From Candidatus Poribacteria bacterium (GTDB lineage: Bacteria; Poribacteria; WGA-4E; JAJDTR01), in the NCBI GenBank assembly GCA_965222225.1, contig CBDCTK010000002.1, positions 3,040,001-3,104,000 of the forward strand: a stretch of 64,000 nucleotides of DNA. Direction: 5' to 3'. The translations under genes were made by a program, and so were the position numbers. Under the pieces are notes generated by a model. That model saw only the letters and a program-made list of their open reading frames with translations. It made no database searches and was not told the DNA's origin. This document shows positions 8,185 to 60,665 of this stretch, one piece after another. The first letter of the stretch is position 1. Every line of letters starts with the position of its first letter.

Positions 8185-8519
8185 AGGTCAGGTAGAATCC
8201 GAGATCTTTGAATCGAAGGTGGAATCGCCTCGTTGGATCGGTAGTTGATGAGTATCTTCGTGTAAACATTCCGTCTTATGGCGGAAGGGTTTTTGCCATC
8301 TGTTATAGAATTTGCGAAGCGTCAAGGGGTTGCGATGCGGAGGAAATCACTATCAGGATCTACTATCGCACTCCTTGTCCAGTCGTTTGATCGCTCCTTA
8401 TTCAGTCGCTTGATCCTACAGCGAGCACCAAGAGGTCGCGATTCGGAGATCGCTCCTACCGGCAACTTCTTTAGAGAATTGCTATCGCGTTCCCTAACCG
8501 GTCACTTGATTGTTTAACT

Positions 8520-9230
8520 GTGCAAGTCCCAATCACTAAACACTTACGCCGGTTGAATCAAGACGCATTTCGACACCTTTTGAAACAGACTTTTCTTCAA
8601 CACGGTTTGCCGCTAACTCATAACCAGCAAGACCAATTCATCACCTACTGGCGGGAGTTGCAGCGATGGAATTCGCGGGTGAATCTCACATCCATTCGTG
8701 ATGACCGCGACATTGTCTTGAAGCATTTTCTTGATTCCGTGGGAGTCCTTAAACACTTTCCGATTGAAGCGGGCGATTCTGTGGTTGACATCGGATCCGG
8801 TGCGGGGTTTCCCGGTCTTCCGCTGAAAATCTACGCCCCCGACATCAAGTTGACGCTCGTCGAATCTTCATCAAAGAAGGCTAGTTTCCTCCAGTTCTTG
8901 ATGCCTCAACTGAACGTCACATCGGAGCAGGCAGATGTTAGCATAGTCGCTCAACGCGCCGAAGCGTTTGCAAAGCGGCGCGAAAACCTTGGCGCTTACG
9001 ATTGGGTTTTAACCCGTTATGTCGCATCATTAGCGGATTCTGCCGCGTATTGTTTGCCGTTGTTAAAGCGCAACGGAACGTGGATTGCCTATAAATCGCG
9101 CGAGGTGGAAGCTGAAATCCGCGAAGCCGGTTCTCAGTTTCGAGCCTTTGGGGGTGAGGTGGGGTGTGTTGTGGATAGCCGGATTTCGGAGTTGAATCGC
9201 GCCTATGTCGCAATACAGGGCTGTTCGTAA
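8520..9230 (+). CDS. rsmG: 16S rRNA m7G527 methyltransferase RsmG (GidB)
   Basis: WNSRVNLTSI, HFLDS, DIGSGAGFPGLPL; downstream of mnmG. Confidence 0.93.
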   Translation: MQVPITKHLRRLNQDAFRHLLKQTFLQHGLPLTHNQQDQFITYWRELQRWNSRVNLTSIRDDRDIVLKHFLDSVGVLKHFPIEAGDSVVDIGSGAGFPGLPLKIYAPDIKLTLVESSSKKASFLQFLMPQLNVTSEQADVSIVAQRAEAFAKRRENLGAYDWVLTRYVASLADSAAYCLPLLKRNGTWIAYKSREVEAEIREAGSQFRAFGGEVGCVVDSRISELNRAYVAIQGCS

Positions 9231-9532
9231 ATGCCCGAGGATTTGCGCGGGATTTTCTACCGCCTTGGAATCTCTATCGCACTCATTATTCATTCGCTTG
9301 ATCGCTGTCCGAGAGCGGGAGTTAAAGATAGAGCTCTCTGATAGCGAAGGCGATAGCAAATCCTATGTGTTATCCGCTCGCTTGATCGCCGTTGGCGCTT
9401 TCAAAGGCTGGTGCGCAGTGCGCACCCTGCAGAAAACCACAGAATTGTGCAAGAAATAAACTGAGTTTTGAAGAAAAAAAGATCCCTATCGCAGTCATTT
9501 TCCATTCCTTTGATCGGTTTCGGGAGGATAGT

Positions 9533-10225
9533 ATGACACATCGCGTTTTTATCTGTTTCTGTATTCTGAGTTTAGGTATAGTCGGGTGCCTTCCCGGAAC
9601 ATTGGAGAAGACTGTGGAGGTGGAGGTAACGCCAACGGCACCGGCCAAGCCACCCGGAATTGCGGAACTTCATCTGTCGCTGGCGAAAGGGGCTTACCCG
9701 GCGGACGAGCCGATTCCACTTCGGATGACCGTGCGGGCTGGGAAATTTGACCTGCTTATGCCGGCGGTATCCGTCGAAGGGGAGGGTGCGTTCGGAGGGT
9801 TAATCATCACGGATGCGGCGGGAAAAGCAATCACGCCGAAATCGCCGATTTCGGCGAAGGGCCACATAAAAAACCTGTTGCACGATGGAAAGGCGGTAGA
9901 TTGTATTCATGGCGTCGATCTGAAATCCAGAGCGGATACGGTTGCGGCGCTGGAGGATTTGCGGGCGCATTACAACCTTGCCCCGGGGGATTACACGCTC
10001 CAAGTCTTCATGAATTTGCAGGTTTATCGGGAATCTCTGCAAGATCAATCGCCGCAGGTCGTCGAGATGGAGAAGGACATCTTGGCAATCCAGCGGAGTA
10101 GGCATTCTGGTGAAGCTAAGCAGGAAGCGATCAGCCGCTTGCGGGAGGACATCGCCGCCATTCAGCGCGAACAGGAGGAGGTTTATGACAAGATTTATCT
10201 TCCCCTAGACTCTTTGCGCGGCTAG
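9533..10225 (+). CDS. Putative lipoprotein; possibly truncated by a premature TAG (frame continues to 10267)
   Basis: MTHRVFICFCILSLGIVGC lipobox after a GGAGG RBS; readthrough would add ADLESNVVSLKIG. Confidence 0.6.
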   Translation: MTHRVFICFCILSLGIVGCLPGTLEKTVEVEVTPTAPAKPPGIAELHLSLAKGAYPADEPIPLRMTVRAGKFDLLMPAVSVEGEGAFGGLIITDAAGKAITPKSPISAKGHIKNLLHDGKAVDCIHGVDLKSRADTVAALEDLRAHYNLAPGDYTLQVFMNLQVYRESLQDQSPQVVEMEKDILAIQRSRHSGEAKQEAISRLREDIAAIQREQEEVYDKIYLPLDSLRG

Positions 10226-10370
10226 GCAGATCTCGAATCTAATGTCGTTTCGTTGAAGATTGGGTGATTTGTTGCAGGGGAGTGTTGGGTTTCACTCGGA
10301 TTTCGGAGGCATGAAGCATAACGAGGGCCTCAAATGCAATCCAGATTCTTGGTTTTTTCGTGAGTTTCCG

Positions 10371-10385
10371 TTCAACCCAACCTAC
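10371..10385 (-). repeat. REP family C, GTAGGTTGGGTTGAA, often paired with TTGGGTTTCAC
   Basis: Copies at about 10371, 15220, 23777, 27697, 33893, 34105, 40867, 55083, 56022, 60522. Confidence 0.75.
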
Positions 10386-10493
10386 ATGCTGTACATAACG
10401 CAGTGGATTTGGCAATCCAAGCCGAGCGCAAAATAGAGAAACCGAGTTTTCAAGAAAAAACTCGGTTTCGAGGCAACCAAGGAGAACTAAGCA

Positions 10494-11924
10494 ATGATAA
10501 TTCATAACGGCGGTCCCAATCTGAGTTTGGGGGAGGTCGTTCTCTTTCCTTTCGATGACTACAGCCTCCCATTTCAGAGGGGGGTTCGATTGCAGTTAAT
10601 TCCGAATAAAGGCGACCAAATCGTCGTGCCGTTTGGGCCTCCCGGCGCACCGGATAGTACAGGCATGAACTACTACGGCGCGGTCTGCAGAGTCGGCGAT
10701 GAACTGTGGATGTGGTATCTGGGGGGCAGCCAGGTGTGTTTTGCAAAGAGCACGGACGGCTACAACTGGAAACGTCCGTGCCTCAGGCTAATTTCTCATA
10801 ATGGCAGCACGCAGAACAATCTGGTGGATTTGGGCGGCGCAGCGTACAAGGTGGTGGCGTGTGTCGTGCTTTATGAACCCGAGGATCCCGATCCTAATCG
10901 CCGATTCAAGATGGTTTACGAGACGCATCGCAGAAACCCGTCACACGGCGGTCGCGCGGAGTTCAACGTTGCCGTTAGCGCGGATGGCATCCGCTGGACG
11001 GAACGCCCGGTCAATCCCCAGTATGTGTCCTGTGAAATGAGTGGTTTCATCAAGTTCAACGGGTGTTATTATGTCTCGGCGCAGAGCGGCGGCGGACATT
11101 TTCCGCGGCCTGAACGAAAGCTGGAAACTTTCGTTTCTTACGATTTCGAGAACTGGGTTGAAGCGGATTGCATGGGATTGCTGCGTGGCAACGTCCCGCC
11201 TCGACCGATGGTTGACGGGTCGCACGCCGGGGAGCAGATTCACCTCGGCGCGGGATTGTGGAACCGGGAGAACGTGATTATCGGCATCTACGGTCAATGG
11301 CACGGGCATCCGACGAACGATAGGAGTTTAATCTCCATGGATCTCGGGCTGGTGGTTAGCAACGACGCGCTGCACTACCGGGAACCGATACCCGATTTTC
11401 GCATCGTTCCGGCGTCGGAAAATAGCGCTGATCGGCTGTTCGGCGCTTTGATGCAGGGACAGGGATTCGAGAACATCAACGGCGAAACGCTGTTCTGGTA
11501 CGCGCCTTGGGGCGGTTGCAACGGCATTCGGGTGGCGAAGTGGGAACAGGATCGGCTGGGTTACTTTGAAGCCTTCTTGGGCATGAAGATGAATTCGCTG
11601 CAGGAATCGCACTTCGTCTCGGCACCGATAGATTTGGAGGGTAAACCGGCGCAGGTGGAGATTAACGTTGATGGTCTATCTGAGTACGCCGAGATTAGCG
11701 TGGAGATTCTGACGGAGCGATTCGAGGCGATTCCGGGATTTGGGCGAGACGACTGCACGGGGCCAAAGGAATCCGGGCTGCGGCAGTTGGTGACATGGGG
11801 GAACCGCGAAAGCCTTGAGAATATTGACGGCAAAGTGCGCGTGCGGGTGAATTTCGGCGGGATTCGTCCCGAGGATGTGAAGATTCACGCGATATATGTG
11901 AGTGAGCAAGGAAACGGACAGTGA
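10494..11924 (+). CDS. Beta-propeller glycoside-hydrolase-like protein (GH32/43/130 clan-like, Asp-boxes)
   Basis: STDGYNW and SADGIRW Asp-boxes, DPDPNRRFKM, C-terminal beta domain shared with paralogs in the window; AGGAG RBS. Confidence 0.65.
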   Translation: MIIHNGGPNLSLGEVVLFPFDDYSLPFQRGVRLQLIPNKGDQIVVPFGPPGAPDSTGMNYYGAVCRVGDELWMWYLGGSQVCFAKSTDGYNWKRPCLRLISHNGSTQNNLVDLGGAAYKVVACVVLYEPEDPDPNRRFKMVYETHRRNPSHGGRAEFNVAVSADGIRWTERPVNPQYVSCEMSGFIKFNGCYYVSAQSGGGHFPRPERKLETFVSYDFENWVEADCMGLLRGNVPPRPMVDGSHAGEQIHLGAGLWNRENVIIGIYGQWHGHPTNDRSLISMDLGLVVSNDALHYREPIPDFRIVPASENSADRLFGALMQGQGFENINGETLFWYAPWGGCNGIRVAKWEQDRLGYFEAFLGMKMNSLQESHFVSAPIDLEGKPAQVEINVDGLSEYAEISVEILTERFEAIPGFGRDDCTGPKESGLRQLVTWGNRESLENIDGKVRVRVNFGGIRPEDVKIHAIYVSEQGNGQ

Positions 11925-11957
11925 GCGCGATAGTAGATTGGAGAAGTTTAACTCAAG

Positions 11958-12776: not shown

Positions 12777-13023
12777 CTCGTGAGCCAATGAATGGTAATC
12801 CCAATTCCCTATATTTGCAGTGCATTAATGGCGTCAATCAAGTCTCTCCAAAGCGGGGCAAGATGCCCCGCCTACGGGGTTAGGTGTGAAGGGGAACAGT
12901 TAGTATGGGTCGTGTCAAAATAGTATAATGCAAACTACTACGCGCTCTATTATTCAAACGACATGGTATAAACAGCCACGGTAACCGAACGAGATTGTTC
13001 AAACAACCACAGGTGAGGTTGAA

Positions 13024-15095: not shown

Positions 15096-15529
15096 ATAGC
15101 GAGCAATCTCGTTCCTAAATAAAGCAGTCAGTTGGGTTTCGCTACGTTCTTGTGCACAAGCGGGACATTGGAAAACAGGATTCTCTTGAAAATTTGATGA
15201 GATTTGGATGACGACGCTCAACCTAACCTACGAGGCCGACCACTTGTGTGGAGCGGAGTAAGAAGCCTTGTCTCCGCGCAAGGTCGGTGGGGCAAAGGGA
15301 CCTCTATCGCACAGGATTTACTATCGCCCTCCTTATCCAGTCGGTTGATCCTACAAGAAATGGTGGGCAGTGCCCACCCTACAAATGTACTAGCCACGGC
15401 CCCTGTCGCGAGTAAAACTCGCCCCTACAGAAGACACGCGGTCTGGATTTGCCAATCCAGACCGATCAGTTAGGGAGATAGCCGAGCAGAGAAGCGCAGA
15501 GCGAATCCCGATGAATCGGGGCTTACAAA

Positions 15530-15554: not shown

Positions 15555-15819
15555 GGGATTGGGCAAGAAAGAAACGGAGTTTTCAAGAAAACAAGGATCT
15601 CTATCGTATTCGCCATTCGCTCATTTGATCCTATCTGTTCGGTTGATTGTTCAACCGAACCTACGGACTGTCGCGACCGGGAGATCGCTCCTACAATGAC
15701 CCCATCTGCTGATGGACCTCTATCGCACTTGTTATTCACTCGTTTGAAGGGATTTCTATCGGGATTTACTATCGCCTTCGCTATTCGCTCGGTCGATCCC
15801 ACCCTACAAAAAAGCTTGA

Positions 15820-17367: not shown

Positions 17368-17610
17368 GGTTTTTTACTTTCAGTGCTCGCACGTCGTGCA
17401 TGTGTCATTAAAGCGGGTAGTCGTGCCGCGCTTTGGAGCCTCATTGAATAACAGTTGGCAAAGTCATTCTCGGGCATTTGCGATGAGCAGGTTTCTATCG
17501 CGGTCACTATCCGTTCCCTTGATCGTTATCCACTCGCTTGATTCTACTGAATCGCGACCGGGAGGTCGCTCCTACCAAGCCCATCATTAAGGGCGCAACT
17601 TAGCCGCGTT

Positions 17611-18435
17611 TTAATGAGCGGTTTTCAGCGCCCCCCAACTCGTTGCGAGTTTTTCATCGGGCTGGACAGCCAAGCCGGACCAGGCTTTGATGTTTTGCAT
17701 TAGTTCATTTTCCGTCAGCGCCTTGTCGTAGACACGAAAAAGGGCGAAAGATCCGTTGAAGTTGCGATTTTTCTCGCCGGGAGAGAAGGAGCCGATTGTG
17801 ATTACCCTCAGCGGAATCTTTTTGTCAAAGTCGACGCCCGGCTGCTTGCTGACCTCTCTACCGTTCTGGTATACCAAAATCTCCTTCTTGTCCTCGCCGG
17901 TAAGCGCTATCCAGTTCCACACGCCCTCCTCAAGTCTGACGTTTGAGGCGATCGACATATCTGCGCCTCCCTGATAAATGCCGATTCCGAGTGTGTCCCC
18001 GTCTTTAAGACCCAACCGAAAACCCTGACGCCCCTCCGGCAACGTGTTGATGCCAGCGAGTTGATGCTCTTCACGGAACAGGTCGCCGTTGCGCCGCACG
18101 AGGAACTCAATCGTCCAGTCTTCAAGCCCGAGTGGAGAAGCGAAGGCTTTGGTTCCGTACATTTCGGCGCTTTTCCGGGCGGTGTAATACTTCGTCTTGC
18201 GCTCGTTAATGCCGATATCCGGGATTTTGATGGGTCCCTCTTCGAGTGCGGGCTGGAGTGCCATAGGCGGTATCGCGCCGCCATCTCCGGCGAGGTTTGT
18301 CCAGGCGTCGGGGTGTGTGGGGTTGTCGCGGGCGTCGAGGTAGAGCACGGCGCCGGGGACGATATCGGCGAGCACCGCAGTGCATAGCGTTGCCAAGAAG
18401 AACGCTGCGCCGAGGATTGACATCACTGTTCTCAT
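17611..18435 (-). CDS. Secreted LamG/concanavalin-like protein with C-terminal AVQPDEKLATSWGALK motif
   Basis: Signal peptide MRTVMSILGAAFFLATLCTAVLA; WTIEF, WNWIALT, VYQNG, FNGSFALFRVYDKALT. Confidence 0.75.
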   Translation of the reverse strand: MRTVMSILGAAFFLATLCTAVLADIVPGAVLYLDARDNPTHPDAWTNLAGDGGAIPPMALQPALEEGPIKIPDIGINERKTKYYTARKSAEMYGTKAFASPLGLEDWTIEFLVRRNGDLFREEHQLAGINTLPEGRQGFRLGLKDGDTLGIGIYQGGADMSIASNVRLEEGVWNWIALTGEDKKEILVYQNGREVSKQPGVDFDKKIPLRVITIGSFSPGEKNRNFNGSFALFRVYDKALTENELMQNIKAWSGLAVQPDEKLATSWGALKTAH

Positions 18436-18578: not shown

Positions 18579-19535
18579 TCGGTTTCGGTTGGGGCGGGGG
18601 TAGGATGGAAAGGAGTGAACAGTGATCTGTGGTCAGTGAGGAAAGGTCGCAAATTGTCTGAATGAGATTTCTATAGGACTCACTGCGGAATCTACTATCG
18701 CCCTCACTATTCGTTCAGCTGATCCCTTCCGGGGCATCTGGAGGCTGGTGCGCAGTGCGCACCCTACAAGATGACAATTCAGAATTGTACGTTTGTACAA
18801 AGTCGAGCTAAGTGTTTGCCTCGTCTCTGTCAGCTATCTGAATCTTAATTCGTTGGGGTTTGGGCTCCTCGGGATTTTCAATAAGTAACTGTATTCCATT
18901 TTTTTCATTTGAACTTAAGAGCTGTTCAAAGTTCATTATGCGAATGCCTAAATCTCTTAATTGACTACGAGTCTTGAGAATATCTCCATCCTCTGTCACA
19001 AATATATCTCTGCCTGCCAAGTAATGAGCGTGGATGTGGTCGAAATCTAGATATTGTGGCAGATTCTTCCCGGTCTTTTTAAAACTGTCAATAATGGACT
19101 CAGCCACGATAAGAAACTCGGCACTCCCCGGTTTGTCAAACTCTGGATTAAGGAGGAATCGATTGCTTTTGCTGTCGAAGCAATTTCGCATAATCGAAGG
19201 GATCTTTCTTATAAAGCTATCTGTGAGAAACCGCTCATCTGATGGGTTGAGTGACAAATCATCTCGAATTCGTTGCGTAACTGCTAAATCCACGGGGCAT
19301 TCTCCCGAAGTTTCCAGGGGTCTAATATTTTTCCACGCTTCATATTGATAACCTCATTGGTATCTAATGTTATTGATGGCAGATGATAAATGCAATCTAC
19401 TTTCACTACATCTGCCTCCGCATGATACATCAACACATTTAGTGTACTGGAAGTGGGGAAGACTAGTGTTAAACGAACCTCGGGCAAATCAGGTTGTGCC
19501 AGTTGAGCAGATTGTTCGCCTATAGTTCGTATATA

Positions 19536-20507
19536 ACCAATGGTGCTAGTTTGAAATTTGGAGGTTAATAAGCATAACATTCCCTTTTGGCTTTGCTTTA
19601 ACGCGAAAGGTATCAGGGCATGAGACGATTTCCTCGATTCTACCGTTAATTTGAGTATCGGTAGCTATCAAATAACGGGAGGAAATCTAGACTCATGACC
19701 ATAGTAGATTTTATCACAGAACTGTTTTGTTGTGTTGATGATAAACTCTCACAGCACGGTAAAAACCATAAGCATAGCCATGCCAAACTTTATCCGTCTG
19801 AAGTGGTTACCATTGCCATGCTCTTTGCGCTCAAGGGTGTGGGTAATCGAGCCTCCTATCGCTGGATAGCGAACAATTTCAAATCCTTATTTCCGAAGTT
19901 ACCCGAGCGTACCCGATTGTTCCGCTTATTCGACGGGCATCAACATCTCATTGACGTTTTTATGGCGAATCCTTCGCTTATCGGTGGAATTGACACGTAC
20001 GGTATTGAATTGATTCACCCGCGCCGAGAAGGGCGCTCTAAACGTCAAATCGGACGCAAAGGCATTTCCAACCAACGATGGATTGTAGGTGGAAAACTTT
20101 GCTTGCTACACAATCATCTCGGACTGATTGTCAACTGGGACTGCGACACTGCCAATGTACATGATGGGAGTGCCTTCCAACATCTCGTTGATGGGGTCAG
20201 TGACCAGATGGTTGTTTTTGCCGATGTAAATTTCGCCAAAGCGGATTGGTTCCCTTCCAACTTGCGTCTGTGCCGACGTGGCGAGTGGAATTCTCGGATG
20301 CTGGTAGAAACGATTTTGTCCATGTTGACGCTAGTGTGCCATTTTAAGAAAGTCATGCACCGTCGTTGGAGTTACTTCAAAACGCGAGTCGGCTTTACAA
20401 TGGCTTTGGTCAATCTCTTGGTACAGTGGAATGGATTGTCGATTGACGACGATGGCTTTGTGCCTCTGTCAATAGCTCAATTCAGTCTCTAAACTAGCAC
20501 CAAAGGT
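19536..20507 (+). mobile_element. IS982-like insertion sequence
   Basis: TIRs ACCAATGGTGCTAGTTT / AAACTAGCACCAAAGGT; TATATA duplicated at 19530-19535 and 20508-20513. Confidence 0.85.
19695..20492 (+). CDS. IS982-like DDE transposase
   Basis: FCCVDD, LYPSEVVTI, LPERTRLFR, IDTYGIE, NVHD, FAD, RMLVETILS. Confidence 0.8.
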   Translation: MTIVDFITELFCCVDDKLSQHGKNHKHSHAKLYPSEVVTIAMLFALKGVGNRASYRWIANNFKSLFPKLPERTRLFRLFDGHQHLIDVFMANPSLIGGIDTYGIELIHPRREGRSKRQIGRKGISNQRWIVGGKLCLLHNHLGLIVNWDCDTANVHDGSAFQHLVDGVSDQMVVFADVNFAKADWFPSNLRLCRRGEWNSRMLVETILSMLTLVCHFKKVMHRRWSYFKTRVGFTMALVNLLVQWNGLSIDDDGFVPLSIAQFSL

Positions 20508-20996
20508 TATATACACGTCCCGTACCTCTGTCACAGTTTTAATCACAAAGTCATCGCAGTCCGCATTTATCCTGTCGATTTCCTCCTTTGGAACGTAAGC
20601 AATTCCATTCAGTTGATTATTCTTGTCTTTACGATCTATCCTGATTCTCTCTATTAACTCACTTTTCGCTATTGGCTGGTTGACATGATTTTCCAGTGCA
20701 GAAGAAAGCTGCCCAATTAGGCGGTTTTGCCATTGATGGTGGTATTCCTTCCAACTTTTGGATTCAGTAGACATATTGCCAAAGAAGATTTCAACATTCA
20801 CGTTTTTTAGTTCTTTGACCTGCACTGCCGTAAGTTGGGGTGCCTGATTCTCCAAGTCTCTGAGTGCATTGTCGCATGCTTCCTTGAGTCGGGCGTTAGA
20901 TTCAGTGAATTCCTTTTTCAAACCTCTTAGAAACGACGTTGCTAATTCGTCCATTGGAATGTCCTTTTCATTCTTATTCGTCGATTGAAGATTTTC

Positions 20997-23301: not shown

Positions 23302-23942
23302 TTCGGGTACCCTTTCACTCGACGGGGTTTGAACGACATTGATTTCAGCGCATGTTTAGTATTAGCCGGGCAATTTGTCGACGCAACATAGTATACCAAG
23401 AGATTCTGATTTATGGAAAAAGATAATGATGCGGTATAGGACTTGCGCTGTTTGGTTTGTAGGAGCGCGTTTTGCTCGCGATTTCAGAACTTTGTCGCGA
23501 CCGGGAGATTGCTCCTACAAGAACCTTTATCTGTGGGGACTCCATCTTCGACCTGATGAGTGCAGTTTTTCTGTAGGGTGCGATCAACCGACTGATTAAG
23601 GAGGGCGATAGCACCCTAAAGAACTGTTGATGGTCTGGAGTTGGTAATCCAGACCGAGTAGGAAAGGATACGACAAGCAGATGGATTGTTGGGTTTCACT
23701 TGAGTTTCGGCTTTTTGGGGAAGAATGAAACGTCGAATGCCTCCTTTCGGCGTGCATGATTTCTCATGGATTTCCGTTCAACCCAACCTACAGAATTTGT
23801 TTCGTCGCGATTCGGTGAGGGATCTCTATCGCACTCGTTATCCACTCGCTTGATCGCTCCTACCATCGCCATCAGGGATTTCTGTCGCATTCATCATTCA
23901 TTCGCTTGATCCCTGTTCTCACCCTACAAAACTCCCGTAGCC

Positions 23943-25842: not shown

Positions 25843-26132
25843 TTGGTTTCGTTTGGCATCAAGGTGGTTGTTTAAACCGGCGATTTGGGGAGCTCTATCG
25901 CACTGAGGTTTTTATTGCGCTCACTACTCATTCGCTTGATCCCACTCCGGGGCTTTGCACGCGCGATAGAGTTCCTTTTCAAAAAATAACTCGGTTTTGA
26001 CTCGGGAGGGTTCGCAAAGGCTGGTGCGCAGTGCGCACCCTACAACACTGGTTAATTGGAGGAGGGTCAAGATTTGGCAGTCCAGACCGAGCGGGGAAAG
26101 AAGGGTGCGCCGAATTTTTGGTTTGAAGCGAA

Positions 26133-30338: not shown

Positions 30339-30539
30339 GATTAATAGCGTCAACCAAGTTTTTCCAAGGCGGGGCAAGGGGACTTCTATCGCACGCGCTA
30401 TGCGCTTGCTTGATCCCCGCCTACCGGCTTTGGGTAATGGTTGCTATCGGTCTATTCATAGAAGTATAATTGCAAAAAACATTTTACGCAATACTGTTCA
30501 AACGAAATGGCATAACAACAAGAAGAGAGGGATTACAGT

Positions 30540-32789: not shown

Positions 32790-33170
32790 AGGGATTCCTA
32801 TCGCGCTCACTATCCGTTCGTTTAATCGCTCCTAACAAGGACTTATACCTGTGAGGACTTCTATCGCACTCCCTATCCGGTCGCTTGATCCTTTTTCAGT
32901 CGCTTGAACTATTCGGTCAGTTGGTCCTTATTCAGTAGCTTGAGAAGATCTCTATCGATCAAGTGAGCGAACAGCGAACGCGATAGCCCATCTTGTTCGC
33001 TATTCGGTTGCTTGATCTATCTGCCCAGTTCACTATTCGCTTGAGGGATTTGCTATCAAGACTTTCTATCGCCTTAGGCTCCCTATCGCGCTAGGATCTC
33101 TATTGGGATTAGCTATCGCGGTCGTTATTCACTCCCTTGATCCTTCGCTATCCGGTCGCGTGATCCCTTG
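32790..33170. repeat. Dense mosaic of complete and partial CTATCGC…TTGATC hairpin elements
   Basis: Full units at 32798, 32861, 33113, an inverted unit at 32957 and several half units. Confidence 0.85.
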
Positions 33171-38697: not shown

Positions 38698-39792
38698 CTA
38701 CGAGACCGTGACCGGGGTGCCGGAGCGTCCAGAGTCAATGGCGGCTTGGACGGTGGCGCATATGGCGCGCCCGGCTCGCGCGTCGAGGATGGTGTCGCCA
38801 TCGGTGTCGATTGCCTGAGCGAAGTTCTCGGGTAACCGGAATTCGTTGTCGCCGGCGACGCGTCGAAGGGGATAGTCGGCTCTCGGTTGGCCCCGATAGT
38901 AGACGTAAATCGCGGGACGTGACTCACTGATGACGAGAGCTCCCTTCGAGCCGAGAACATGAGTCTTAATTTCTCCGATGTCGGGGTGGCTCGCGGAACC
39001 GATGCGACCAATACACAGGGATCCGAGGATGTCCTTATCAATCTCCAGCGTAACGGTTGCCAAGTCCTCAATGTCGTTATCCACGCAGGCTTGATGGAAA
39101 TGTGCGGTCGTGCGGGCAAAGACCTTCTTGACAACCGCCCCGGCCAGCACCCGTATAGAGGCGAGTGGATAAATCCCCTCAACCTTTAGTTCTCCCATAG
39201 GGCCAACGCCGCCATCGGATGCGTCCGCATGCGCTCCCATCTGCCGCTCCAGTCGGTTGATGGGAGGCTTCTTGGGCTTGCTCGGATCTTTTGGCGGTCC
39301 TTTGTCCTTGGCGAAATAGAAATCGGCATGGATGGCGTAAGGTTCGCCGATCCTGCCGCTCTCCAACACCTCCTTGGCCTGGATTAGGGCTGGCAGAAAG
39401 TTGCGATTCCAGAGCAGGAACTTCACGCCGTTGCGTTTGACCGCCTCAACCACTCGGTCACACTCGGAAACGCGGTCGGACATGGGTTTATCCTGCACGA
39501 TGTGCAATCCGGCGTCGGCGGCACGGACGCTCAAATCGCAGTGGCGTTCCGCCTCCGAGCTTACCACGGCGACCTGTACGTTATAGTCCGCGATGGCGCG
39601 TTCGACATCACGGACATAGGGAATATTGTAGTCGTCCGCAAACTTCTGGTTGCGTTCATGCACCCAATCGGGCTGATCGGGGTCGTCGGCGGCGACCACA
39701 GGCTCGAAACGGGGGTGTGCCGCCATCGCGACGGGGACATAGGCGTGTTTCACGACGCTTAGCGCGACAAATCGGAACTTAAGCGAGTTCAT
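38698..39792 (-). CDS. Gfo/Idh/MocA oxidoreductase (duplicate of 40973..42073)
   Basis: AGLHIVQDKPM; near-identical to paralog. Confidence 0.85.
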   Translation of the reverse strand: MNSLKFRFVALSVVKHAYVPVAMAAHPRFEPVVAADDPDQPDWVHERNQKFADDYNIPYVRDVERAIADYNVQVAVVSSEAERHCDLSVRAADAGLHIVQDKPMSDRVSECDRVVEAVKRNGVKFLLWNRNFLPALIQAKEVLESGRIGEPYAIHADFYFAKDKGPPKDPSKPKKPPINRLERQMGAHADASDGGVGPMGELKVEGIYPLASIRVLAGAVVKKVFARTTAHFHQACVDNDIEDLATVTLEIDKDILGSLCIGRIGSASHPDIGEIKTHVLGSKGALVISESRPAIYVYYRGQPRADYPLRRVAGDNEFRLPENFAQAIDTDGDTILDARAGRAICATVQAAIDSGRSGTPVTVS

Positions 39793-39970: not shown

Positions 39971-40254
39971 TGGATTTACACCTCCGTGTTAAGGATTTAC
40001 GTCTTCCATAGGAATCGATGTGATGGGTATTCGGATAGGATAACCGCATCTGATTTTAGATTCTTGGAGCGTCTTTCGTAATCGCCCTACTTTTTACAGG
40101 TCAATGCCCTTTGGTTGCCTTCTCCTTTTGGGACCAATGGCGTCATTTTTCGCAGATTAGCAGTTTCGACCCGCCTTATTGTTTACCGCAATACCAAGCC
40201 CCAGCGGGGATCAAACGAACGGATAGTGAGTGCGATAGAAATCCCACAGGTGCG

Positions 40255-40728
40255 TCATGTCTCGGATGCGTCGTCCGAACCAAAGACATATTTCGGATTG
40301 TAGGGGACATTAAAACGCTTCAAAAACTCAAGATATTCCTCTTTGAACGTCTGACGAGCATGATGTGCTTCCTGATTCTTGATATAACGTACAACACCGT
40401 GCAACTGAGCATGAGAATACGAGAACGCCGCGAAACCCGCCTGCCATTCAAATCGTCCGACAACCCATCTCTTTGTGTTAATAAATTTTGACGAATTTGC
40501 CTTGATGTCTCGCACCAGATCAGAGAGAGCAATGTCTGGAGCCATGCCGATGAGGATATGAATGTGATCGGGCATTGAATTAATCTGAATCACCGTCTGC
40601 ATTTTGCCAGTTATAATGCGGGTAATGTACTGGTGTGGCGCCTCTTTATGCTGTTTTGGAATGAGGCATTGTCTGCCTTTTACGGCGAAGACAACGTGCA
40701 GGTAAATTTGGGTGTACGTATCCGCCAT
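40255..40728 (-). CDS. tnpA: IS200/IS605-family (Y1 HUH) transposase TnpA, REP-flanked
   Basis: YLHVVFAVKGR, MPDHIHIL (HUH), FEWQAGF, YIKNQEAHH. Confidence 0.9.
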   Translation of the reverse strand: MADTYTQIYLHVVFAVKGRQCLIPKQHKEAPHQYITRIITGKMQTVIQINSMPDHIHILIGMAPDIALSDLVRDIKANSSKFINTKRWVVGRFEWQAGFAAFSYSHAQLHGVVRYIKNQEAHHARQTFKEEYLEFLKRFNVPYNPKYVFGSDDASET

Positions 40729-40972
40729 AGTGGCTTTCCTTAGAGGAACCGTTTACCTGTCGCCCCTCCGGGGCTTTGGTGTTTGGAGTTTCGGCGTTGC
40801 TATACACCTTCAGGATCTCTATCGCACGGGATTTACTATCGCGCTCCCTTTTCAGTCGCTTGATGGTTCAACCCAACCTACAGGGACCTACACTTGCCGT
40901 CCCGCCGGGGATTTCAAAGGCTGGTAAGAGCTCTATCGCACTCCCTATCCGGTCGCTTGATCGGTGCGCACC

Positions 40973-42073
40973 CTACGAGACCGTGACCGGGGTGTCGGAA
41001 CGCCCGGAGTCGATGGCGGCTTGGACGGTGGCGCAGATGGCGCGTCCGGCTCGCGCGTCAAGGATGGTGTCGCCATCGGTGTCGATCGCTTGGGCGAAGT
41101 TCTCGGGGAGCTGGAAGTTGTTGTCGTCGGCGACGCGCTGATGGGGATATTCGGTCGCCAGTTGGCCCCGATAGTAGACGCTGACTTCGGGACGCGCCTC
41201 GCTGATGACGAGCGCGCCCTCCGATCCGAGCACATGAATCTTAATCTCGCCGATGTCCGGGTGGCTGGCGGCGCCGATGCGTCCGATGCACAGCGTTCCG
41301 AGGATGCCCTGATTCATCTCCAGCGTGACGGTCGCCAGGTCCTCAATGTCGTTGTCAACGCAGGCTTGATGGAAGTGCGCGGTGGTGCGGGCAAAAACCT
41401 GCCGAACGTCCACTCCGGTCAGCATGCGTATGTAGGCAAGCGGATAGATTCCCTCAATCTTCAGTTCCCCCATGGGATCGGCGCCCACGCCGCCATCTGA
41501 CCCATCTTTATGAGCATCAATCTGCCGCTCCAGCCAGTTGATGGCAGGCTTTCTGGGCTGGTTCGGATCTTTCGGAGGTCCCGCGTCCTTGGCGAAATAG
41601 AAATCGGCATGGACGGCGTAGGGCTCGCCTATCCTACCACTCTCCAACACCTGCTTGGCTTGGATCACGGCTGGCAGACAGTTGCGATTCCAGAGCAGAA
41701 ATTTCACGCGGTTGCGTTCGACCGCCTCAACGACGCGGTCACACTCGGAAACGCGGTTCGACATGGGTTTATCCTGCACAATGTGCAATCCGGCGTCGGC
41801 GGCACGCACGCTCAAATCGCAGTGGCGTTCCGCCTCCGAGCTTACTACGGCGACCTGCACGTTATAATCGGCGATGGCGCGTTCGACATCACGGACATAG
41901 AGGATATTGTAGTCGTCCGCGAACTTCTGATTCCGTTCATGCACCCAGTCGGGCTGATCGGCATCGTCGGCGACGACCACAGGCTCGAAACGGGGGTGTG
42001 CCGCCATCGCGACAGGGACATAGGCGTGCTTGACGACGCTTAGCGCGACAAATCGAAATTTAGGCGAGTTCAT
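40973..42073 (-). CDS. Gfo/Idh/MocA oxidoreductase
   Basis: AGLHIVQDKPM; family C-terminal fold. Confidence 0.85.
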   Translation of the reverse strand: MNSPKFRFVALSVVKHAYVPVAMAAHPRFEPVVVADDADQPDWVHERNQKFADDYNILYVRDVERAIADYNVQVAVVSSEAERHCDLSVRAADAGLHIVQDKPMSNRVSECDRVVEAVERNRVKFLLWNRNCLPAVIQAKQVLESGRIGEPYAVHADFYFAKDAGPPKDPNQPRKPAINWLERQIDAHKDGSDGGVGADPMGELKIEGIYPLAYIRMLTGVDVRQVFARTTAHFHQACVDNDIEDLATVTLEMNQGILGTLCIGRIGAASHPDIGEIKIHVLGSEGALVISEARPEVSVYYRGQLATEYPHQRVADDNNFQLPENFAQAIDTDGDTILDARAGRAICATVQAAIDSGRSDTPVTVS

Positions 42074-48876: not shown

Positions 48877-49350
48877 ATGCAAGACATTCCAAACCGAGGA
48901 TACCGTCAATTGCGGAAAGGTAGACGCTCCATACCGGACACCTACTACTCCCTTACGCTTACCACAATTGACAGAAAACCGCTTCTTGCAAACGCGGAGG
49001 TTGCAGACGTTATATTCGAAGCCTTTGATTAGCTCGAAACCAATAAATGGTGCAGATGGTTTTGTCTCGTCGTAATGCCAGATCATATCCATTCCGTCAT
49101 TCAACTGGCGGGTAACAAGACCCTTTCGAGACTCATTCAATCCTTCAAAAGTTTCACAGCGAGACGGATTAACACCCACTTGGGACGCAGCGGTTCGCTC
49201 TGGCAAGCGGCTTATCATGACCACGGCATTCGGCACGACGAGTCATTGAATGCGATTATTCGATACTGTTACGAGAATCCTGTGAGGAGCGGATTGGTGA
49301 AGGAGGCGAGGGATTATCCGTATTGGCGGTCTAAATTCGAGATGGGGTGA
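48877..49350 (+). pseudogene. rayT: REP-associated tyrosine transposase (RAYT) with in-frame TAG at 49030
   Basis: LRKGRRS..YYSLTLTT, VVMPDHIHSV, SFKSFTAR, LWQAAYHDHGIR, YCYENPVRSGLV; flanked by inverted family-A REPs. Confidence 0.88.
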
Positions 49351-49589
49351 GGAGGGTACAATGCCCTCTGAGCGCAATCTCCCGCCGGCTCCTTTTTCCA
49401 TAGGAGCGATGAAGCGAGCGGGAATTTCTATCGCCCTCGTTGTTCACTCGGTTGATCGATAGAGATCCTCTCAAGGTCGCGATTCTTTCGTTTTCCGTCG
49501 TTTTGGCCAAGGAGTCGCGACCTAGAGATCGCTCCTACAGTAGCGTATCGTGTAATCCAGCTTTTTGACTGGAACATGCAACCGCATAG

Positions 49590-50378: not shown

Positions 50379-50681
50379 GCGGATCGAACGGTTCGCGGGT
50401 CGGGCTAGAAGGGATTTCTATCGCGGTCACTATCCATTCCCTTGATCGCACGGGATTTTCTATCGCCTTCGTTAATCACTCAGTTGATCGTTATTCACTC
50501 GTTTGATTGTTCGCTTGATTTCACTCTGGGGCTTTGGTGCTTAGGGCATCGGTGCTACTATACACCTGTCGCCCTTATAGGGCTTTCAAAGGCTGGTAAG
50601 AGCTCTATCGCGCTCCCTATCCGGTCACTTGATCGCAGTGCGCACCCTACAACTGATACATGAAACCAAAAAAAGGAGACA

Positions 50682-53444: not shown

Positions 53445-53481
53445 GGCATTCTGTAAAGAGAAGGATTAGACAGAGCAAGCT

Positions 53482-54336: not shown

Positions 54337-54441
54337 ATATCAATCGAGCGAGTGAATAACGACCGATCAAAGGAAGGATCAAGGAAGCGAATAGCGAGCG
54401 CGATAGTGATCCACTTGCCACTGTGTCTAGGGAGGATTTCT

Positions 54442-56017: not shown

Positions 56018-56341
56018 GCCATGTAGGTTGGGTTGAACAAGAAATATCATATAAAAGCAAATAGCGTGCTATTTCTCAAGTAAACTGGCGTGCGAGACAG
56101 TAATAGTGAAACCCAACACTGTAGGAGCGATCTCCGAATCGCGACCTTTTAGAAATCAGTGCTGTAGGGAGGAATCAGCGATTAAGCGAGTGAACAACGA
56201 GGAATAAAGCGACTGGTCAAGGAGCAGGATTTTCTATCGCCTTCCTTATCCAGTCAGTTAATCGCTCACTATCCGCTCGCTTGATCCCAACCTACGGGCT
56301 ATTCACCCCATAGCCCTAATACCAATCAGGAGTGATTTTCA

Positions 56342-57490: not shown

Positions 57491-57762
57491 TCGCGGATGT
57501 GTGGATTCGTAGTCAGGACCAGCAAGCAGAGGAGGGAAACTGGGGATTTGACTATCGCAACCATCCTCTGTAGGAGCGACCTCCCGGTCGCGATTATCCT
57601 TTTGTGGATACCTTGATGTCCAGTTTCGCGAGCAGGAGAAGTTCTCTATCGCACTCGCTATGCGCTCGCTCGATCTCCTACAGAAGACGTGCAGTAACGG
57701 AATTTCTATCGAATCTCTATGGGAGTTCTATCGCGTTCCCTATCCGGTCACTTGATCCCAGA

Positions 57763-57791
57763 TTTACATTTCCCGCGAGATTTGCTATAAT
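57763..57791 (+). promoter_or_regulatory. Sigma70-like promoter
   Basis: TTTACA-17 bp-TATAAT about 60 bp upstream of 57850. Confidence 0.65.
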
Positions 57792-57849
57792 CCGTTTGAA
57801 AGCAGTAAAGACTACTACGTATTTCAACGCAACCGGGAGGAGCACTCAT

Positions 57850-58908
57850 ATGAAGATATTAATTACAGGTGGGACGGGAAGGATTGGGGGGAATCTTGCC
57901 AAACGTTTGCTGGAAAAGGGGCACGACATCCGCAGTTTCGTCTACCCCGCCGATGCCAGCCGCGTGGATAAACTTGACGAGTATGACCGCGTCGAAACGG
58001 TTGTCGGGGATTTGCGCAACTTCGACGATGTGAAACGCGCCGTGAATGGGGTGGACGCCATCTATCATCTCGCCGCGGCATTTGTCGGACCTTTCGACAA
58101 TCTGCAATATCTAAACATCAACGGCATGGGAACGCTCAACATTTTGGAGTGTATTCGCACGGATTGTCCCAATCTGCACCGTTTCGTTTATGCCTGCACC
58201 GAGGCGATTTATTGGCGCCTGGGGGAAAAGGGGCGCTATTTCGAGGAACCGATTACCGAGGATATGGTCAGCCGCTACAAGCAGATGCCGTACTTCTTGA
58301 CCAAATGGGTTGGCGAGGAGTTGAGCATGAGCTATCACCTTCAGTATGGCGTTCCGACGACCGTCTTCCGTTTCGCTACCGTGATTGAGCCGGGCGAGTT
58401 TCTAAACAAAGATGGTTTGCCGGGGCTTTTCCTATTCAGTCCGGCTTATAATCGCGTCAAAGACGAATCGAGAGAGGATGCGGACGAGCGGGAGATTATT
58501 GAGACCCTCAAATCGCTTTGGACGGGCGAGGAAAAGTTCCTGCTAACCCGCAACCCGAACGGGACGCCGTACAAACAGGAATTTACGGATGTACGCGACA
58601 TTGTGCAGGGACTGGTTTTGGGGATTGAGAAAGATGAGGCGCTCGGCGAGGAGTTCACGCTTGGCGGGGCGGCGCTGTTTAAGTGGGAGGAGGCTGTGCC
58701 CTACCTCTCCGAGCGATATAACTTGGACTATGTCGATGCGAGAGTGCTGAGTTCCAACCATTTCGAGTTCGATCTCACCAAGATTAAGGCATTGCTGGGA
58801 TATCAGCCCCAACACGATTTGGAAAGCGTTCTTGATACCGCCGAAGCGATACGGCGCGGCGAAGAGGTAGGTATTATTCCGACGGGCATCCGATGGGGGA
58901 AGGCGTGA
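57850..58908 (+). CDS. NAD-dependent epimerase/dehydratase
   Basis: ILITGGTGRIG, YHLAA, YFLTK, DVRDIV; GGAGG RBS. Confidence 0.9.
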   Translation: MKILITGGTGRIGGNLAKRLLEKGHDIRSFVYPADASRVDKLDEYDRVETVVGDLRNFDDVKRAVNGVDAIYHLAAAFVGPFDNLQYLNINGMGTLNILECIRTDCPNLHRFVYACTEAIYWRLGEKGRYFEEPITEDMVSRYKQMPYFLTKWVGEELSMSYHLQYGVPTTVFRFATVIEPGEFLNKDGLPGLFLFSPAYNRVKDESREDADEREIIETLKSLWTGEEKFLLTRNPNGTPYKQEFTDVRDIVQGLVLGIEKDEALGEEFTLGGAALFKWEEAVPYLSERYNLDYVDARVLSSNHFEFDLTKIKALLGYQPQHDLESVLDTAEAIRRGEEVGIIPTGIRWGKA

Positions 58909-58914
58909 ATCGCA

Positions 58915-59161
58915 AGAGCTTGTTTGACAAATAGGTGGCAAAACAATTTTCGGACACCTGGGCCAGGGCTTTTATCATGTTTTTGTTGCCGCCCCCTATA
59001 CACCTGTCGCCCCGCTGGGGCTTGAGTGCGCAGGATTTTGCGGTTTCTATAAACCTTTCGCCCCTCCAGGGCTTTCAAAGACTGGTGCAGGGGTTTTATC
59101 TTAATCAAAGATTAGTTTCAGGGCAGTGGCTCTGCTCGAAATAAGTTTTCAAACAGGTTCT
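58915..59161. mobile_element. MITE-like element enclosing family-D REPs
   Basis: Ends AGAGCTTGTTTGA / TCAAACAGGTTCT; internal CACCTGTCGCCCCGCTGGGGCT and CCTTTCGCCCCTCCAGGGCT. Confidence 0.55.
59001..59022 (+). repeat. REP family D, CACCTGTCGCCCCGCTGGGGCT
   Basis: Copies or variants at about 38476, 40197 (interrupted), 40756, 44465, 44518, 50563, 59054; two flank tnpA. Confidence 0.75.
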
Positions 59162-59175
59162 AATGGAGTCCACGA

Positions 59176-60348
59176 ATGAGTATGAATGCAGAAAATTATC
59201 CGCGAGACATCAGAATAACGAAGATTGAACAGGTGACGTTGCAGGTGGATCGCCCCGAAATCGGGACTAACTCGCGGGCAGAAGAGATAATCTATCCCGA
59301 GCCGAGCTGGAAGTGGGATGAAGGCGTCATCCGTATCTACACTAGCGACGGCACGCTGGGATGGGGCGTCGGACGCGCCGATGCGGAACTCGCGCGACGC
59401 GCCTTGAATCGTAGTCCATTCGATCTACTCAACCCGGCAACGGGCGTCACGGACGAATTCAGAGGGCTTGAAAACGCCCTGTGGGACACTATTGGCAAGA
59501 TACTCGGGGTACCGGTGTATCAGCTCATCAGCGACCAAAGTTATGCGGATTGGCTGCCGGTTTACGATAGCACCATCTACTTCAACGATCTCCTGTACGA
59601 CTCGAAAGAGGCGGGGCTGAAACGGATAGCGGAAGATGCGGAAAGCAGCGTAAGGAACGGCTTTCGGGCGTGCAAGATGAAGATTGGGCGCGGTTGTTTC
59701 CTCATGGATCACGACGAAGGTTTGAAGCGGGACATCGAGGTTGTCAAAATCATGCGCAAGATTGCCGGCGAGGATTTCAATATCCACGTCGATGCGAATA
59801 ACGGCTACACGTATGACGAGACGGTCGCCTTCTTGGACGCGACAAGCGATGTCGGCGTTTTCTGGATAGAGGAGATGTTTGACGAGGAGGTTGAGGCATA
59901 CCGCAATCTGAAAGCGGCTATCAAGAAACGAAACCTGAAGACGTTTATCGCCGATGGCGAGACCCGAACGCGCGAGCCGCTGGAGTTCTACGACCCGTTC
60001 TTTCGGGAGGGCGTGCTGGATGTCATTCAGCACGACATTCGCGGGCTTGGCATCACCGGCTGGCGGCGGCTTGCCAAGATGGCGGGCGAACACGGCGTGA
60101 AGTGCGCGCCGCACAACTGGTCATCGTTGCTCGGGCTTTTTTTGAGCTTTCAGTTTGGCAAGGCGATCCCGAATTTCCTCTACGGGGAATGCGCGACCCT
60201 CACCAGCGATGTCATCGATACCTCGGGATATATCTTCAAGGACGGCGCTTTCAGCGTTCCCGACACCCCGGGACTCGGTTTGGAATTGAATCAGCGGGTT
60301 TATTATGAGCGGTACGCCGGGCGCGAGACGTGGGTGTTGGAGTGTTGA
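59176..60348 (+). CDS. Enolase-superfamily (MR/MLE) enzyme
   Basis: ENALWDTIGK, CKMKIG, VDANNG, WIEE, ADGE, PHNW, PGLGLE. Confidence 0.9.
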   Translation: MSMNAENYPRDIRITKIEQVTLQVDRPEIGTNSRAEEIIYPEPSWKWDEGVIRIYTSDGTLGWGVGRADAELARRALNRSPFDLLNPATGVTDEFRGLENALWDTIGKILGVPVYQLISDQSYADWLPVYDSTIYFNDLLYDSKEAGLKRIAEDAESSVRNGFRACKMKIGRGCFLMDHDEGLKRDIEVVKIMRKIAGEDFNIHVDANNGYTYDETVAFLDATSDVGVFWIEEMFDEEVEAYRNLKAAIKKRNLKTFIADGETRTREPLEFYDPFFREGVLDVIQHDIRGLGITGWRRLAKMAGEHGVKCAPHNWSSLLGLFLSFQFGKAIPNFLYGECATLTSDVIDTSGYIFKDGAFSVPDTPGLGLELNQRVYYERYAGRETWVLEC

Positions 60349-60665
60349 GGATTCGCAGAAGCGGGAATTGGTGATTTGATAATTGAAGATTGCATGCTAG
60401 CGCTCCCAAAGGCTGGTGAGATCTCTATCGCGGTCGTTATTCACTTCCTTAATCGCAGTGCGCACCCTACAGGAATTGTATCGCAGAGGGAGGGAATAAA
60501 CCGCCCTACCACAGTGCCTCTAGTAGGTTGGCTTGAACGATCTCGCTCGATCCTTGCCAGAGCGCCATCTTGGATCGTCCTAGCTAAAACAAACCTTTCA
60601 ACACCAAACAAGAGGTAGCGGTTAGACGGAGTGTTTTAGGGTACATATTGCACGGAGTCCTCGGT

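Follow-up and report, generated by a model that had tools for sequence, protein, structure and literature searches.

The contig CBDCTK010000002.1 (C2) of the Candidatus Poribacteria bacterium assembly GCA_965222225.1 was analyzed over a stretch of 64,000 nucleotides (C2:3040001-3104000; hereafter, the window), which belongs to the genome of an uncultured sponge symbiont (5.70 Mb in two contigs). The window contains 32 copies of a 30-nt element with the pattern CTATCGC-NN-TC-NN-TATYC-NN-TC-NN-TTGATC, and the whole genome contains 1,073. The element is a miniature mobile element of the repetitive extragenic palindrome (REP) type, with an unusually minimal hairpin that is defined by its shape and with a habit of nesting in other REPs. 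It is probably a non-autonomous DNA element of the REP class that is moved in trans by a Y1 transposase in a few genera of Poribacteria. The observation and the structural inference of an earlier reading of the letters of the window (the original prediction) are confirmed. Its claim that the element lies outside the known repeat classes fails, since the hallmarks of REPs are present, namely a short, imperfect and mostly extragenic palindrome, approximately 1,000 copies and sub-families of stems.

Repeat Unit and Copy Number

The pattern was searched for with up to 3 mismatches, both in the window and in the whole genome. The window matches (27 on the + strand and 5 on the - strand) span positions 8363 to 60454, while the chance expectation is 0 matches across 100 dinucleotide shuffles of the window; the prediction of about 30 copies of fixed length in this interval was thus accurate. 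Genome-wide, 489 copies are exact and 337, 157 and 90 copies have one, two and three mismatches, respectively. The positions of genes were taken from a crude call based on open reading frames (ORFs), which gave 4,553 ORFs over 83% of contig C2. Despite this coverage, 863 of the 1,070 copies on C2 are located outside ORFs. The population of copies comprises 650 distinct 30-mers, the most frequent of which occurs 45 times. Approximately 10 outer and 8 inner stem types are common, and the two are partially associated (Cramer's V 0.36).

Most of the clusters (499 of 728) consist of a single copy. Tandem arrays with periods of 25 and 38 nt are also present; in the 25-nt form, which is found genome-wide, a TTGATCGC junction is common to neighboring units. 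Such arrays would fit repeated insertion or duplication at an internal GCG/AT site. Neighboring copies differ in their stems and lie at irregular distances of 25–260 nt, which agrees with the earlier distinction of the element from CRISPR repeats.

Stem Covariation and Strand of the Hairpin

Each fixed position is 94–99% invariant across the 1,073 copies, except for three of the five positions of the TATYC loop (61–89%); the TC/TC positions are 94–98% invariant. The variable positions are 8, 9, 12, 13, 19, 20, 23 and 24. According to the original prediction, the variable dinucleotides remain complementary (a/a' and b/b') and the element is conserved by pairing and not by sequence. Both statements were borne out: all eight pairs of dinucleotides quoted there are correct, and all four stem pairs covary. 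Mutual information was 1.15 bits for the pair 12-20, 0.96 for 9-23, 0.76 for 8-24 and 0.41 for 13-19. These are four of the five top values for any two positions between -15 and +49, the lowest of them being tied with the flank pair -4/-3. In the 32 window copies, standard pairs occupy 96.1% of the cells versus 59.7% after shuffling (none of 500 shuffles was as high), and a shift of the pairing partner by 1–3 columns leaves 21–60% of the cells paired. The core of the element is, therefore, one small hairpin in which two Watson–Crick steps of 2 bp flank an invariant tandem G.A/A.G, with a 5-nt GRATA loop.

The exceptions to Watson–Crick pairing were expected to be mostly A/C on the CTATCGC strand, i.e., G.T on the other strand. 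The genome-wide counts agree: 467 A.C or C.A pairs on the CTATCGC strand (257 + 32 + 33 + 145), which correspond to G.T on the complementary GA strand, versus 84 G.T or T.G pairs. Of these GA-strand wobbles, 257 are found in the outermost pair, 145 in the loop-closing pair, and 32 and 33 in the two pairs adjacent to the G.A/A.G step. A set of 151 copies from other Poribacteria gave a similar picture, with Watson–Crick pairs in 502 of 604 cells, 78 wobbles on the GA strand and 12 on the other strand. Because the wobble exceptions sit mainly on the GA strand, this strand can be regarded as the folding one, and the predicted form GATCAA-NN-GA-NN-GRATA-NN-GA-NN-GCGATAG stands. These data show that the hairpin is kept by selection on the GA strand. 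In addition, T is nearly absent from the first position of the variable dinucleotides and A from the second, which would fit the known context preference of sheared tandem G.A pairs.

Insertion as a Discrete Unit

In order to find sites without the element, the two 150-nt flanks of each copy were joined and the joined sequence was searched against the genome. An empty paralogous site (at least 80% identity, without the element) was found for 123 of the 1,073 copies. A single insert of 33–36 nt is the difference in 62 of these 123 pairs of filled and empty sites, and the best pair has 96.8% identity over 248 nt. Junctions were parsed in 48 pairs. The insert has the form [G/A]GGATYT-CTATCGC-17 nt-TTGAT and a length of 36 nt in 23 pairs and 35 nt in 9 pairs. 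Its first bases are GGGA, AGGA or GGAT in 31 of the 48 junctions and its last are TTGAT in 32 (15 TTTGAT, 15 CTTGAT and 2 GTTGAT), and the right flank starts with C[GC]C in 37 (CGCA in 15, CCCC in 13). Read on the GA strand, the inserted unit is ATCAA-[NN-GA-NN]-GRATA-[NN-GA-NN]-GCGATAG-ARATCC, approximately 35–36 nt long, and it is located 3' of a G-S-G trinucleotide in a fixed orientation. No target duplication was seen in the 48 parsed junctions. Thus, the element inserts as a discrete unit without target duplication.

The outer GGGAT...ATCCC stem attributed to many copies does exist, but it is complete in only 4 of the 32 window copies and 101 of the 1,073 genome copies, and its 3' CC stems from the insertion target and not from the element. 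Empty sites between species were not obtainable among five genomes of the genus, in which intergenic regions are too diverged, and a search of metagenomes gave 0 matches to a conserved 20-mer anchor. A repeat of approximately 175 nt at window positions 12793–12971 has dozens of copies with 79–86% identity in each of five genomes of the genus; at other genomic loci, its paralogues provided the empty counterparts of element insertions.

Landing Sites

Insertions occurred mostly into the tops of other hairpin repeats, among them the loop of GTAGGGTGCGCA-CTG-CGCACC, the 5' arm of GTAGGAGCGACC..GGTCGC and the GCCCC..GGGGC hairpin; a further target is the CTATCGC tail of an existing copy of the element. 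Orientation at these targets is nearly strict: directly after GTAGGGTGC, the GA form was counted 63 times and the other form 0 times; after GTAGGAGC, the respective counts are 35 and 1; and ACCT[GA]T precedes the CTATCGC form in 58 cases and the opposite form in 8. Self-nesting in the same orientation was found 145 times, and the nested context TCGCACGGGATTTA occurs 11 times genome-wide. It follows that the element inserts preferentially into the hairpin tops of other REPs and into the tails of existing element copies. Since insertion into palindromic targets is orientation-specific, a strand-specific, single-strand process is indicated.

In 255 of the 1,073 copies, the GA strand is preceded by a GTAGG tag at a distance of up to 18 nt on its 5' side, because these copies sit inside GTAG REPs and the tag belongs to the host REP. 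The genome has two families of GTAG-tagged REPs, GTAGGAGCGAYC..GGTCGC with 327 tags and GTAGGGTGCGCACTGCGCACC with 214 tags; examples in the window are located at 8416–8470 and 49460–49520.

Element Copies and Y1 Transposase Genes in the Window

The features of the window are given below. For the element, + means that the CTATCGC strand is on the + strand, the GA strand being its complement.

8363–8392 (+), element copy, followed by a module of 25-nt period at 8393–8415
8393–8415 (+), follow-on module GC-TC-CT-TATTC-AG-TC-GC-TTGATC, which uses the preceding TTGATC (25-nt-period array form)
8482–8511 (+), element copy
9274–9303 (+), element copy
9486–9515 (+), element copy
11904–11933 (-), element copy, 3 mismatches
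15321–15350 (+), element copy
15601–15630 (+), element copy
15720–15749 (+), element copy, 3 mismatches
15769–15798 (+), element copy
17495–17524 (+), element copy, followed by a partial copy (3' half) at 17525–17543
18695–18724 (+), element copy
23582–23611 (-), element copy
23826–23855 (+), element copy
23882–23911 (+), element copy
25912–25941 (+), element copy, 3 mismatches
30386–30415 (+), element copy, 3 mismatches
32798–32827 (+), element copy
32861–32890 (+), element copy
32957–32986 (-), element copy
33113–33142 (+), element copy
40209–40238 (-), element copy nested in the hairpin that flanks the Y1 gene downstream
40258–40728 (-), gene of an IS200-like HUH/Y1 transposase, a candidate trans-acting enzyme, the native flanks of which are a different hairpin
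40813–40827 (+), 5' stub of an outer copy (GGATCTCTATCGCAC), holding the nested copy 40828–40865
40836–40865 (+), element copy on the upstream side of the Y1 gene, in inverse orientation to 40209–40238
40933–40962 (+), element copy
48877–49350 (+), RAYT-like Y1 transposase pseudogene with an in-frame TAG at 49030
49428–49457 (+), element copy, approximately 80 nt downstream of the RAYT-like pseudogene
50418–50447 (+), element copy
50460–50489 (+), element copy
50605–50634 (+), element copy
54377–54406 (-), element copy
56234–56263 (+), element copy
57646–57675 (+), element copy
57728–57757 (+), element copy
60425–60454 (+), element copy

Five Y1_Tnp loci were found in the genome, two of them inside the window. 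RAYT-like proteins that are intact are encoded at C2:2564316–2564720 and C2:3727757–3727975. The product of the gene at 40258–40728 (157 aa) contains HIH and Y-x3-Q motifs. It scores 83.7 bits with the Pfam model and 65.8 with the NCBIfam IS200 model (cut-off 55), and 30.6 with the NCBIfam REP-tyrosine-transposase model, which is below the cut-off of 80; the nearest solved structures are the TnpA proteins of ISDra2 and IS608. Inverted copies of the element lie on both sides of the gene (40209–40238 and 40836–40865). The conserved unit around it is approximately 616 nt long (40196–40811), and its gene context differs between genomes of the genus. Nine orthologous loci were compared. At four of them, the element is nested in the native hairpin at the same junction (three at the downstream end, one at the upstream end), and at the remaining five both proximal hairpins are native. 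The junction of the copy at 40209–40238 in gene sense is CACCTGT/GGGATTT-CTATCGC...TTGATC/CCCGCTGGGGC, where slashes mark the borders of the insert. Genes of GFO/IDH/MocA-family oxidoreductases at 38701–39792 and 40976–42073 (both -) bracket the Y1 unit and may be a tandem pair that was split by its insertion. No match to TnpB was found in the genome.

The TAG codon at 49030 disrupts the only close copy in this genome of the REP-associated tyrosine transposase (RAYT) of the GTAG-REP type. Its orthologues are intact in three other genomes of the genus (G001, G005 and G006), and the closest one within G007 is broken too.

The cognate transposase was sought by adjacency, in the flanks of homologues of three Y1 types and at all Y1 loci of five further genomes, and the element was the native flank of none. 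A search by co-occurrence gave none either; the IS200-like type occurs in genera without the element. No cognate enzyme was assigned because the Y1 genes carry flanking REPs of their own that differ from the element.

Three further observations concern other parts of the window. A bacterial large signal recognition particle (SRP) RNA is encoded at 2872–3139 (+; 188 bits, full-length match to RF01854). A repeat of approximately 977 nt at 19534–20510, probably an insertion sequence (IS), has at least 15 copies at 89% identity in the genome G002 and fewer in other genomes of the genus; the summed depth of RNA contigs is high across it. In a metatranscriptome contig of a strain with approximately 96% identity (run X5, record 20), the 254-nt block 17370–17623, which is intergenic and contains the copy at 17495, is replaced by 62 nt.

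Orientation Relative to Replication and Transcription

The CTATCGC form is found mainly on the locally G-rich strand (317 versus 190 copies under positive GC skew and 165 versus 398 under negative skew). The association of orientation with skew has an odds ratio of 4.0 by copy (p ~5e-28) and of 4.65 by cluster (p ~1e-21), and in 100-kb bins the Spearman rho is 0.55 (p 2.6e-5). In regions of strong skew, 66–79% of the copies have the CTATCGC form on the G-rich strand, and orientation switches along with the sign of the skew on the contig. The dnaA gene is located at 2,610,389–2,610,874 (2.61 Mb), near the minimum of cumulative skew at 2.54 Mb; therefore, the + strand of the window, which bears the CTATCGC form, is taken as the lagging-strand template. 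Both GTAG REP families have the same polarity and favor the C-rich strand (odds ratios of 0.33 and 0.23).

With respect to genes, the element shows no such bias. Between co-directional genes, 256 copies are oriented one way and 300 the other, and divergent and convergent intergenic regions contain 152 and 155 copies. Orientation is thus independent of transcription and linked to the replication strand.

The GC skew flips its sign at least 6 times along the 5.6-Mb contig C2, which suggests many inversions or assembly joins. A second match to the DnaA domain was found at 602,775–603,212 of the same contig.

Distribution in Poribacteria

With up to 2 mismatches, 685–1,436 copies were found in each of ten genomes of the genus (the window genome included) and 225–244 copies in four of four genomes of g4, a genus of another family. 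One sister genus has 3 copies, and in 26 further genomes of this order no copy was found. The 32 window copies were used to build a covariance model, which was run over 151 Poribacteria genomes and detected the element in 8/8 genomes of g1, 4/4 of g4, 1/1 of g2, 2/20 of g6, 1/1 of g12 and 0/100 of the family f2; among the g6 positives, one genome has at least 21 copies. An exact-pattern scan of all species genomes gave at least 125 matching stretches, and the 80 of them that were listed all belong to Poribacteria. No exact matches were found in the IMG/VR viral contigs. The positions of copies are not conserved between species of the genus, even beside genes with 85–94% identity. Thus, in the genomes sampled, the element was found in a few genera of Poribacteria, with a lineage-restricted and patchy distribution.

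The absence of a match to a known RNA family, on which the original prediction depended, was upheld: at the gathering score, Rfam 15 recovered only the SRP RNA in the window, and a permissive scan (E up to 10) of the regions 8300–9600 and 50400–50650 gave nothing relevant. A literature search on repetitive extragenic palindromes or RNA motifs of Poribacteria, including 'Poribacteria-1', found nothing relevant, and the main text of Weinberg 2017 does not mention Poribacteria.

Proposed Mechanism

In the mechanism that we consider probable, the folded GA strand of single-stranded DNA would be the recognized form. A HUH/Y1 tyrosine transposase (RAYT-like or IS200-like) encoded elsewhere in the genome would bind it, cut it and rejoin it, as the IS200/IS605 enzymes treat their own end hairpins, with the G.A/A.G step and the GRATA loop serving as putative shape signals. 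The covariation could then reflect selection for mobilizable hairpins in a large and old population of copies, in which only hairpin-competent variants would keep spreading. Covariation of the stems need not, on this account, mean a function for the host.

A number of results weigh against this mechanism, and most of them concern the enzyme. The genome does encode plausible Y1 enzymes, but the searches identified none as cognate to the element. The native ends of the ~616-nt unit, as seen in the nine orthologous loci, are a different hairpin, ..TATACACCTGTC-GCCCC-NNN-GGGGC-TTT..; these hairpins are inverted, have CACCTGTC tails and occur in the genome in only 17–25 native copies. IS200-like homologues were found in all seven g6 genomes examined, all without the element (five are 70–79% identical, two are partial or weaker), and in three genomes of the genus with 685–931 copies each the homologues are only 67–70% identical. 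A closer Y1 relative is absent from the single g6 genome that carries 21 copies or more. The RAYT-like pseudogene and its orthologues are flanked by GTAG REPs of the GTAGGAGCGAYC..GGTCGC family. The element does lie on either side of a Y1 remnant elsewhere in the genome, a flanking that the orthologues of this remnant do not share.

Other results of this kind concern the element itself. Seemingly, 0–2 target nucleotides are replaced at the junctions (TG in 8, CG in 7, none in 7 and G in 6 of the 48), while a simple insertion of the IS608 type predicts no replacement. The two-copy clusters (n = 171) include 129 direct and only 42 inverted pairs with variable spacing, and classical bacterial interspersed mosaic elements (BIMEs) and REPINs, which are REP doublets, are inverted pairs. 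The predicted fold is weak: DNA nearest-neighbor folding gave -0.4 to -3.4 kcal/mol with z of 0 to +1.2 (one CTATCGC-strand copy had z of -0.9) and RNA folding gave z of -1.3 to +0.9, so that neither strand folds better than shuffles with either set of energies. Standard energy parameters may under-credit sheared G.A pairs. The folding energies neither support nor exclude the hairpin.

The GA strand, moreover, is mostly located on the C-rich strand, i.e., the leading-strand template, and in the IS608 paradigm, as summarized in part of Quentin 2018 (PMC6006769), the active strand is on the lagging-strand template. The reversed polarity could possibly be explained by preferential loss of copies that expose the foldable strand on the lagging-strand template, by a different route of entry, or by the other strand being the substrate.

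A bolder version of the proposed mechanism is rather unlikely in our estimate. It holds that the element is the smallest self-contained mobile unit of single-stranded DNA described, namely a 17-nt tandem-G.A hairpin with short tails (35–36 nt) that would be read purely by shape and would parasitize other mobile hairpins (the apex of GTAG REPs, the end hairpins of Y1 units and its own tail). The accumulation of the foldable strand on the leading-strand template, contrary to the IS608 rule, would then imply an undescribed HUH mode of insertion or survival at the replication fork.

Alternative Explanations

The original prediction suggested a single-stranded molecule read by shape. Nothing favors a discrete RNA in this role, as orientation is unrelated to genes and neither strand is unusually stable. 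An action as RNA in a wider sense, either as a small structured RNA or as a cis-acting hairpin of mRNA (a stabilizer or a protein-binding site) formed by the GA strand with G.U wobbles, is improbable to a high degree. It would account for the wobble asymmetry, which is as expected of a transcribed strand, and the proposed fold is the minimum-energy structure in two of four GA-strand copies with RNA parameters. Four metatranscriptome runs from three studies cover the element-bearing region, with contigs that span element-bearing intergenic regions, but these are assembled contigs that break at repeats, have no ends or strand and may contain DNA. Many REPs are plausibly transcribed, according to sections of Di Nocera 2013 (PMC3733652). 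Such a role is difficult to reconcile with the equal orientation and occupancy relative to genes (256 vs 300; 152 vs 155), with an orientation that tracks GC skew instead (odds ratio 4.0–4.6), with the nesting of copies in other repeats and in one another, and with the lack of an Rfam match and of significant fold z-scores. The skew itself might point to a polar DNA motif that the host uses for replication or chromosome handling, like Chi or the FtsK-orienting sequences, with a leading-strand orientation read by a host protein. The strength of the association (66–79% in regions of strong skew, cluster odds ratio 4.65, rho 0.55 in the bins), the reversal of polarity at each of several changes of skew sign and the position of dnaA near the cumulative-skew minimum are all consistent with it. 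However, the bias is modest, and the two GTAG REP families of the genome are polarized alike; therefore, the polarity looks general to the mobile hairpins of this genome. The element is also missing from most of the Poribacteria genera searched, the positions of its copies are not conserved between species of the genus, and copies are nested in other repeats, which together leave a host motif as improbable as an RNA.

Somewhat less improbable, though still unlikely, is mobility or amplification without a Y1 enzyme. The element could resemble a miniature inverted-repeat transposable element (MITE) with GGGAT/ATCCC termini and another transposase, or it could spread and be homogenized by template switching at quasi-palindromes. 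No Y1 gene is tied specifically to the element, short inverted termini are found in 101 of 1,073 copies, the tandem periods of 25 and 38 nt suggest slippage, and the replacement of 0–2 target nucleotides would fit as well. Yet the target-site duplication of a MITE was not seen, and the 3' CC of the "terminal repeat" derives from the target. Strict orientation into palindromic targets (63 vs 0 and 35 vs 1) also argues against this explanation, and template switching would erase the G.A/A.G mismatches, which are 94–98% conserved. Thus, a REP-class element moved by a Y1 transposase is preferred here.

Significance

Approximately a thousand natural variants per genome amount to a mutational scan of what the recognition of a single-strand hairpin needs. 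The apparent needs are two invariant G.A pairs, strict Watson–Crick pairing beside them and wobble at the two helix ends only, together with variable dinucleotides that do not start with T or end with A. Should the reader be a Y1 transposase, the element would be a minimal substrate for studying, and possibly designing, shape-based recognition of DNA. The filled and empty sites show single REP-type hairpins that move alone and nest in other REPs, which bears on the question of the replicative unit of REPs. The polarity relative to the replication strand is common to three REP families of this genome. In addition, copies of the element break assemblies of sponge-symbiont genomes and shape fast-changing intergenic regions.

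Comparison with Known Systems

The element shares with the GTAG REPs of E. coli and Pseudomonas a short imperfect palindrome (approximately 20–40 nt in REPs; here a 30-nt core with four covarying pairs and weak predicted stability), hundreds to thousands of dispersed, mostly intergenic copies, and sub-families with alternative complementary stems. Several families per genome, clusters of mixed families, REPs beside Y1/HUH genes and a conserved single-stranded tail are further common features. According to sections of Quentin 2018 (PMC6006769), a REP has a 5' GT[AG]G tetranucleotide 0–2 nt from the foot of the hairpin, and atypical REPs without GTAG and with weak structure are known for some Y1 classes. 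The tails of the element are GATCAA and GCGATAG, and its own hairpin lacks a GT[AG]G tetranucleotide at the foot. The original statement that it is not a GTAG-type REP is therefore correct as regards the tag, but the REP hallmarks and the mobility with defined ends place it among REPs. Unlike GTAG REPs, it has only 4 Watson–Crick pairs, split by the invariant tandem G.A, it occurs mostly as single or direct tandem copies, no RAYT gene was found that it natively flanks, and it is often located inside GTAG REPs.

Like REPINs, the element is a miniature non-autonomous DNA, which is presumably moved in trans by a Y1 transposase encoded as a single copy, and forms a population of variants with few abundant masters (650 distinct 30-mers, top n = 45). 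The hairpin of REPINs is kept by compensatory changes, as described in part of Bertels & Rainey 2011. However, REPINs are inverted REP doublets of approximately 100 nt, whereas the inserting unit here is one hairpin of 35–36 nt, and the inverted pair at a characteristic spacing that defines a BIME or REPIN is not the basic unit of the element. As for structured RNAs, both an Rfam match and a consistent orientation to transcription are absent.

The peel-and-paste IS200/IS605 elements (IS608, ISDra2) likewise need an imperfect hairpin and insert without target duplication, 3' of a short specific sequence and in one orientation; this behavior, also expected of their non-autonomous derivatives, was found for the element, and the window itself encodes an IS200-like TnpA that has the HUH and Y-x3-Q motifs. 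In contrast to these elements, there is one hairpin instead of separate left-end and right-end hairpins, no adjacent tnpA and no TnpB found in the genome, some junctions lose 1–2 target nucleotides, and the presumed active strand is mostly on the leading-strand and not the lagging-strand template.

The nearest parallel to the stem itself is found among REPs. In the sections of Di Nocera 2013 (PMC3733652) that describe them, REP families comprise sub-families that differ in their complementary stem residues, one family has an invariant unpaired GA, and the GTAG-24 REPs of P. aeruginosa have a conserved G/A mismatch within a complementary stem. Those REPs have stems of 12–13 bp and a GTAG tag, whereas the element described here has no tag and places its tandem G.A between two 2-bp steps.

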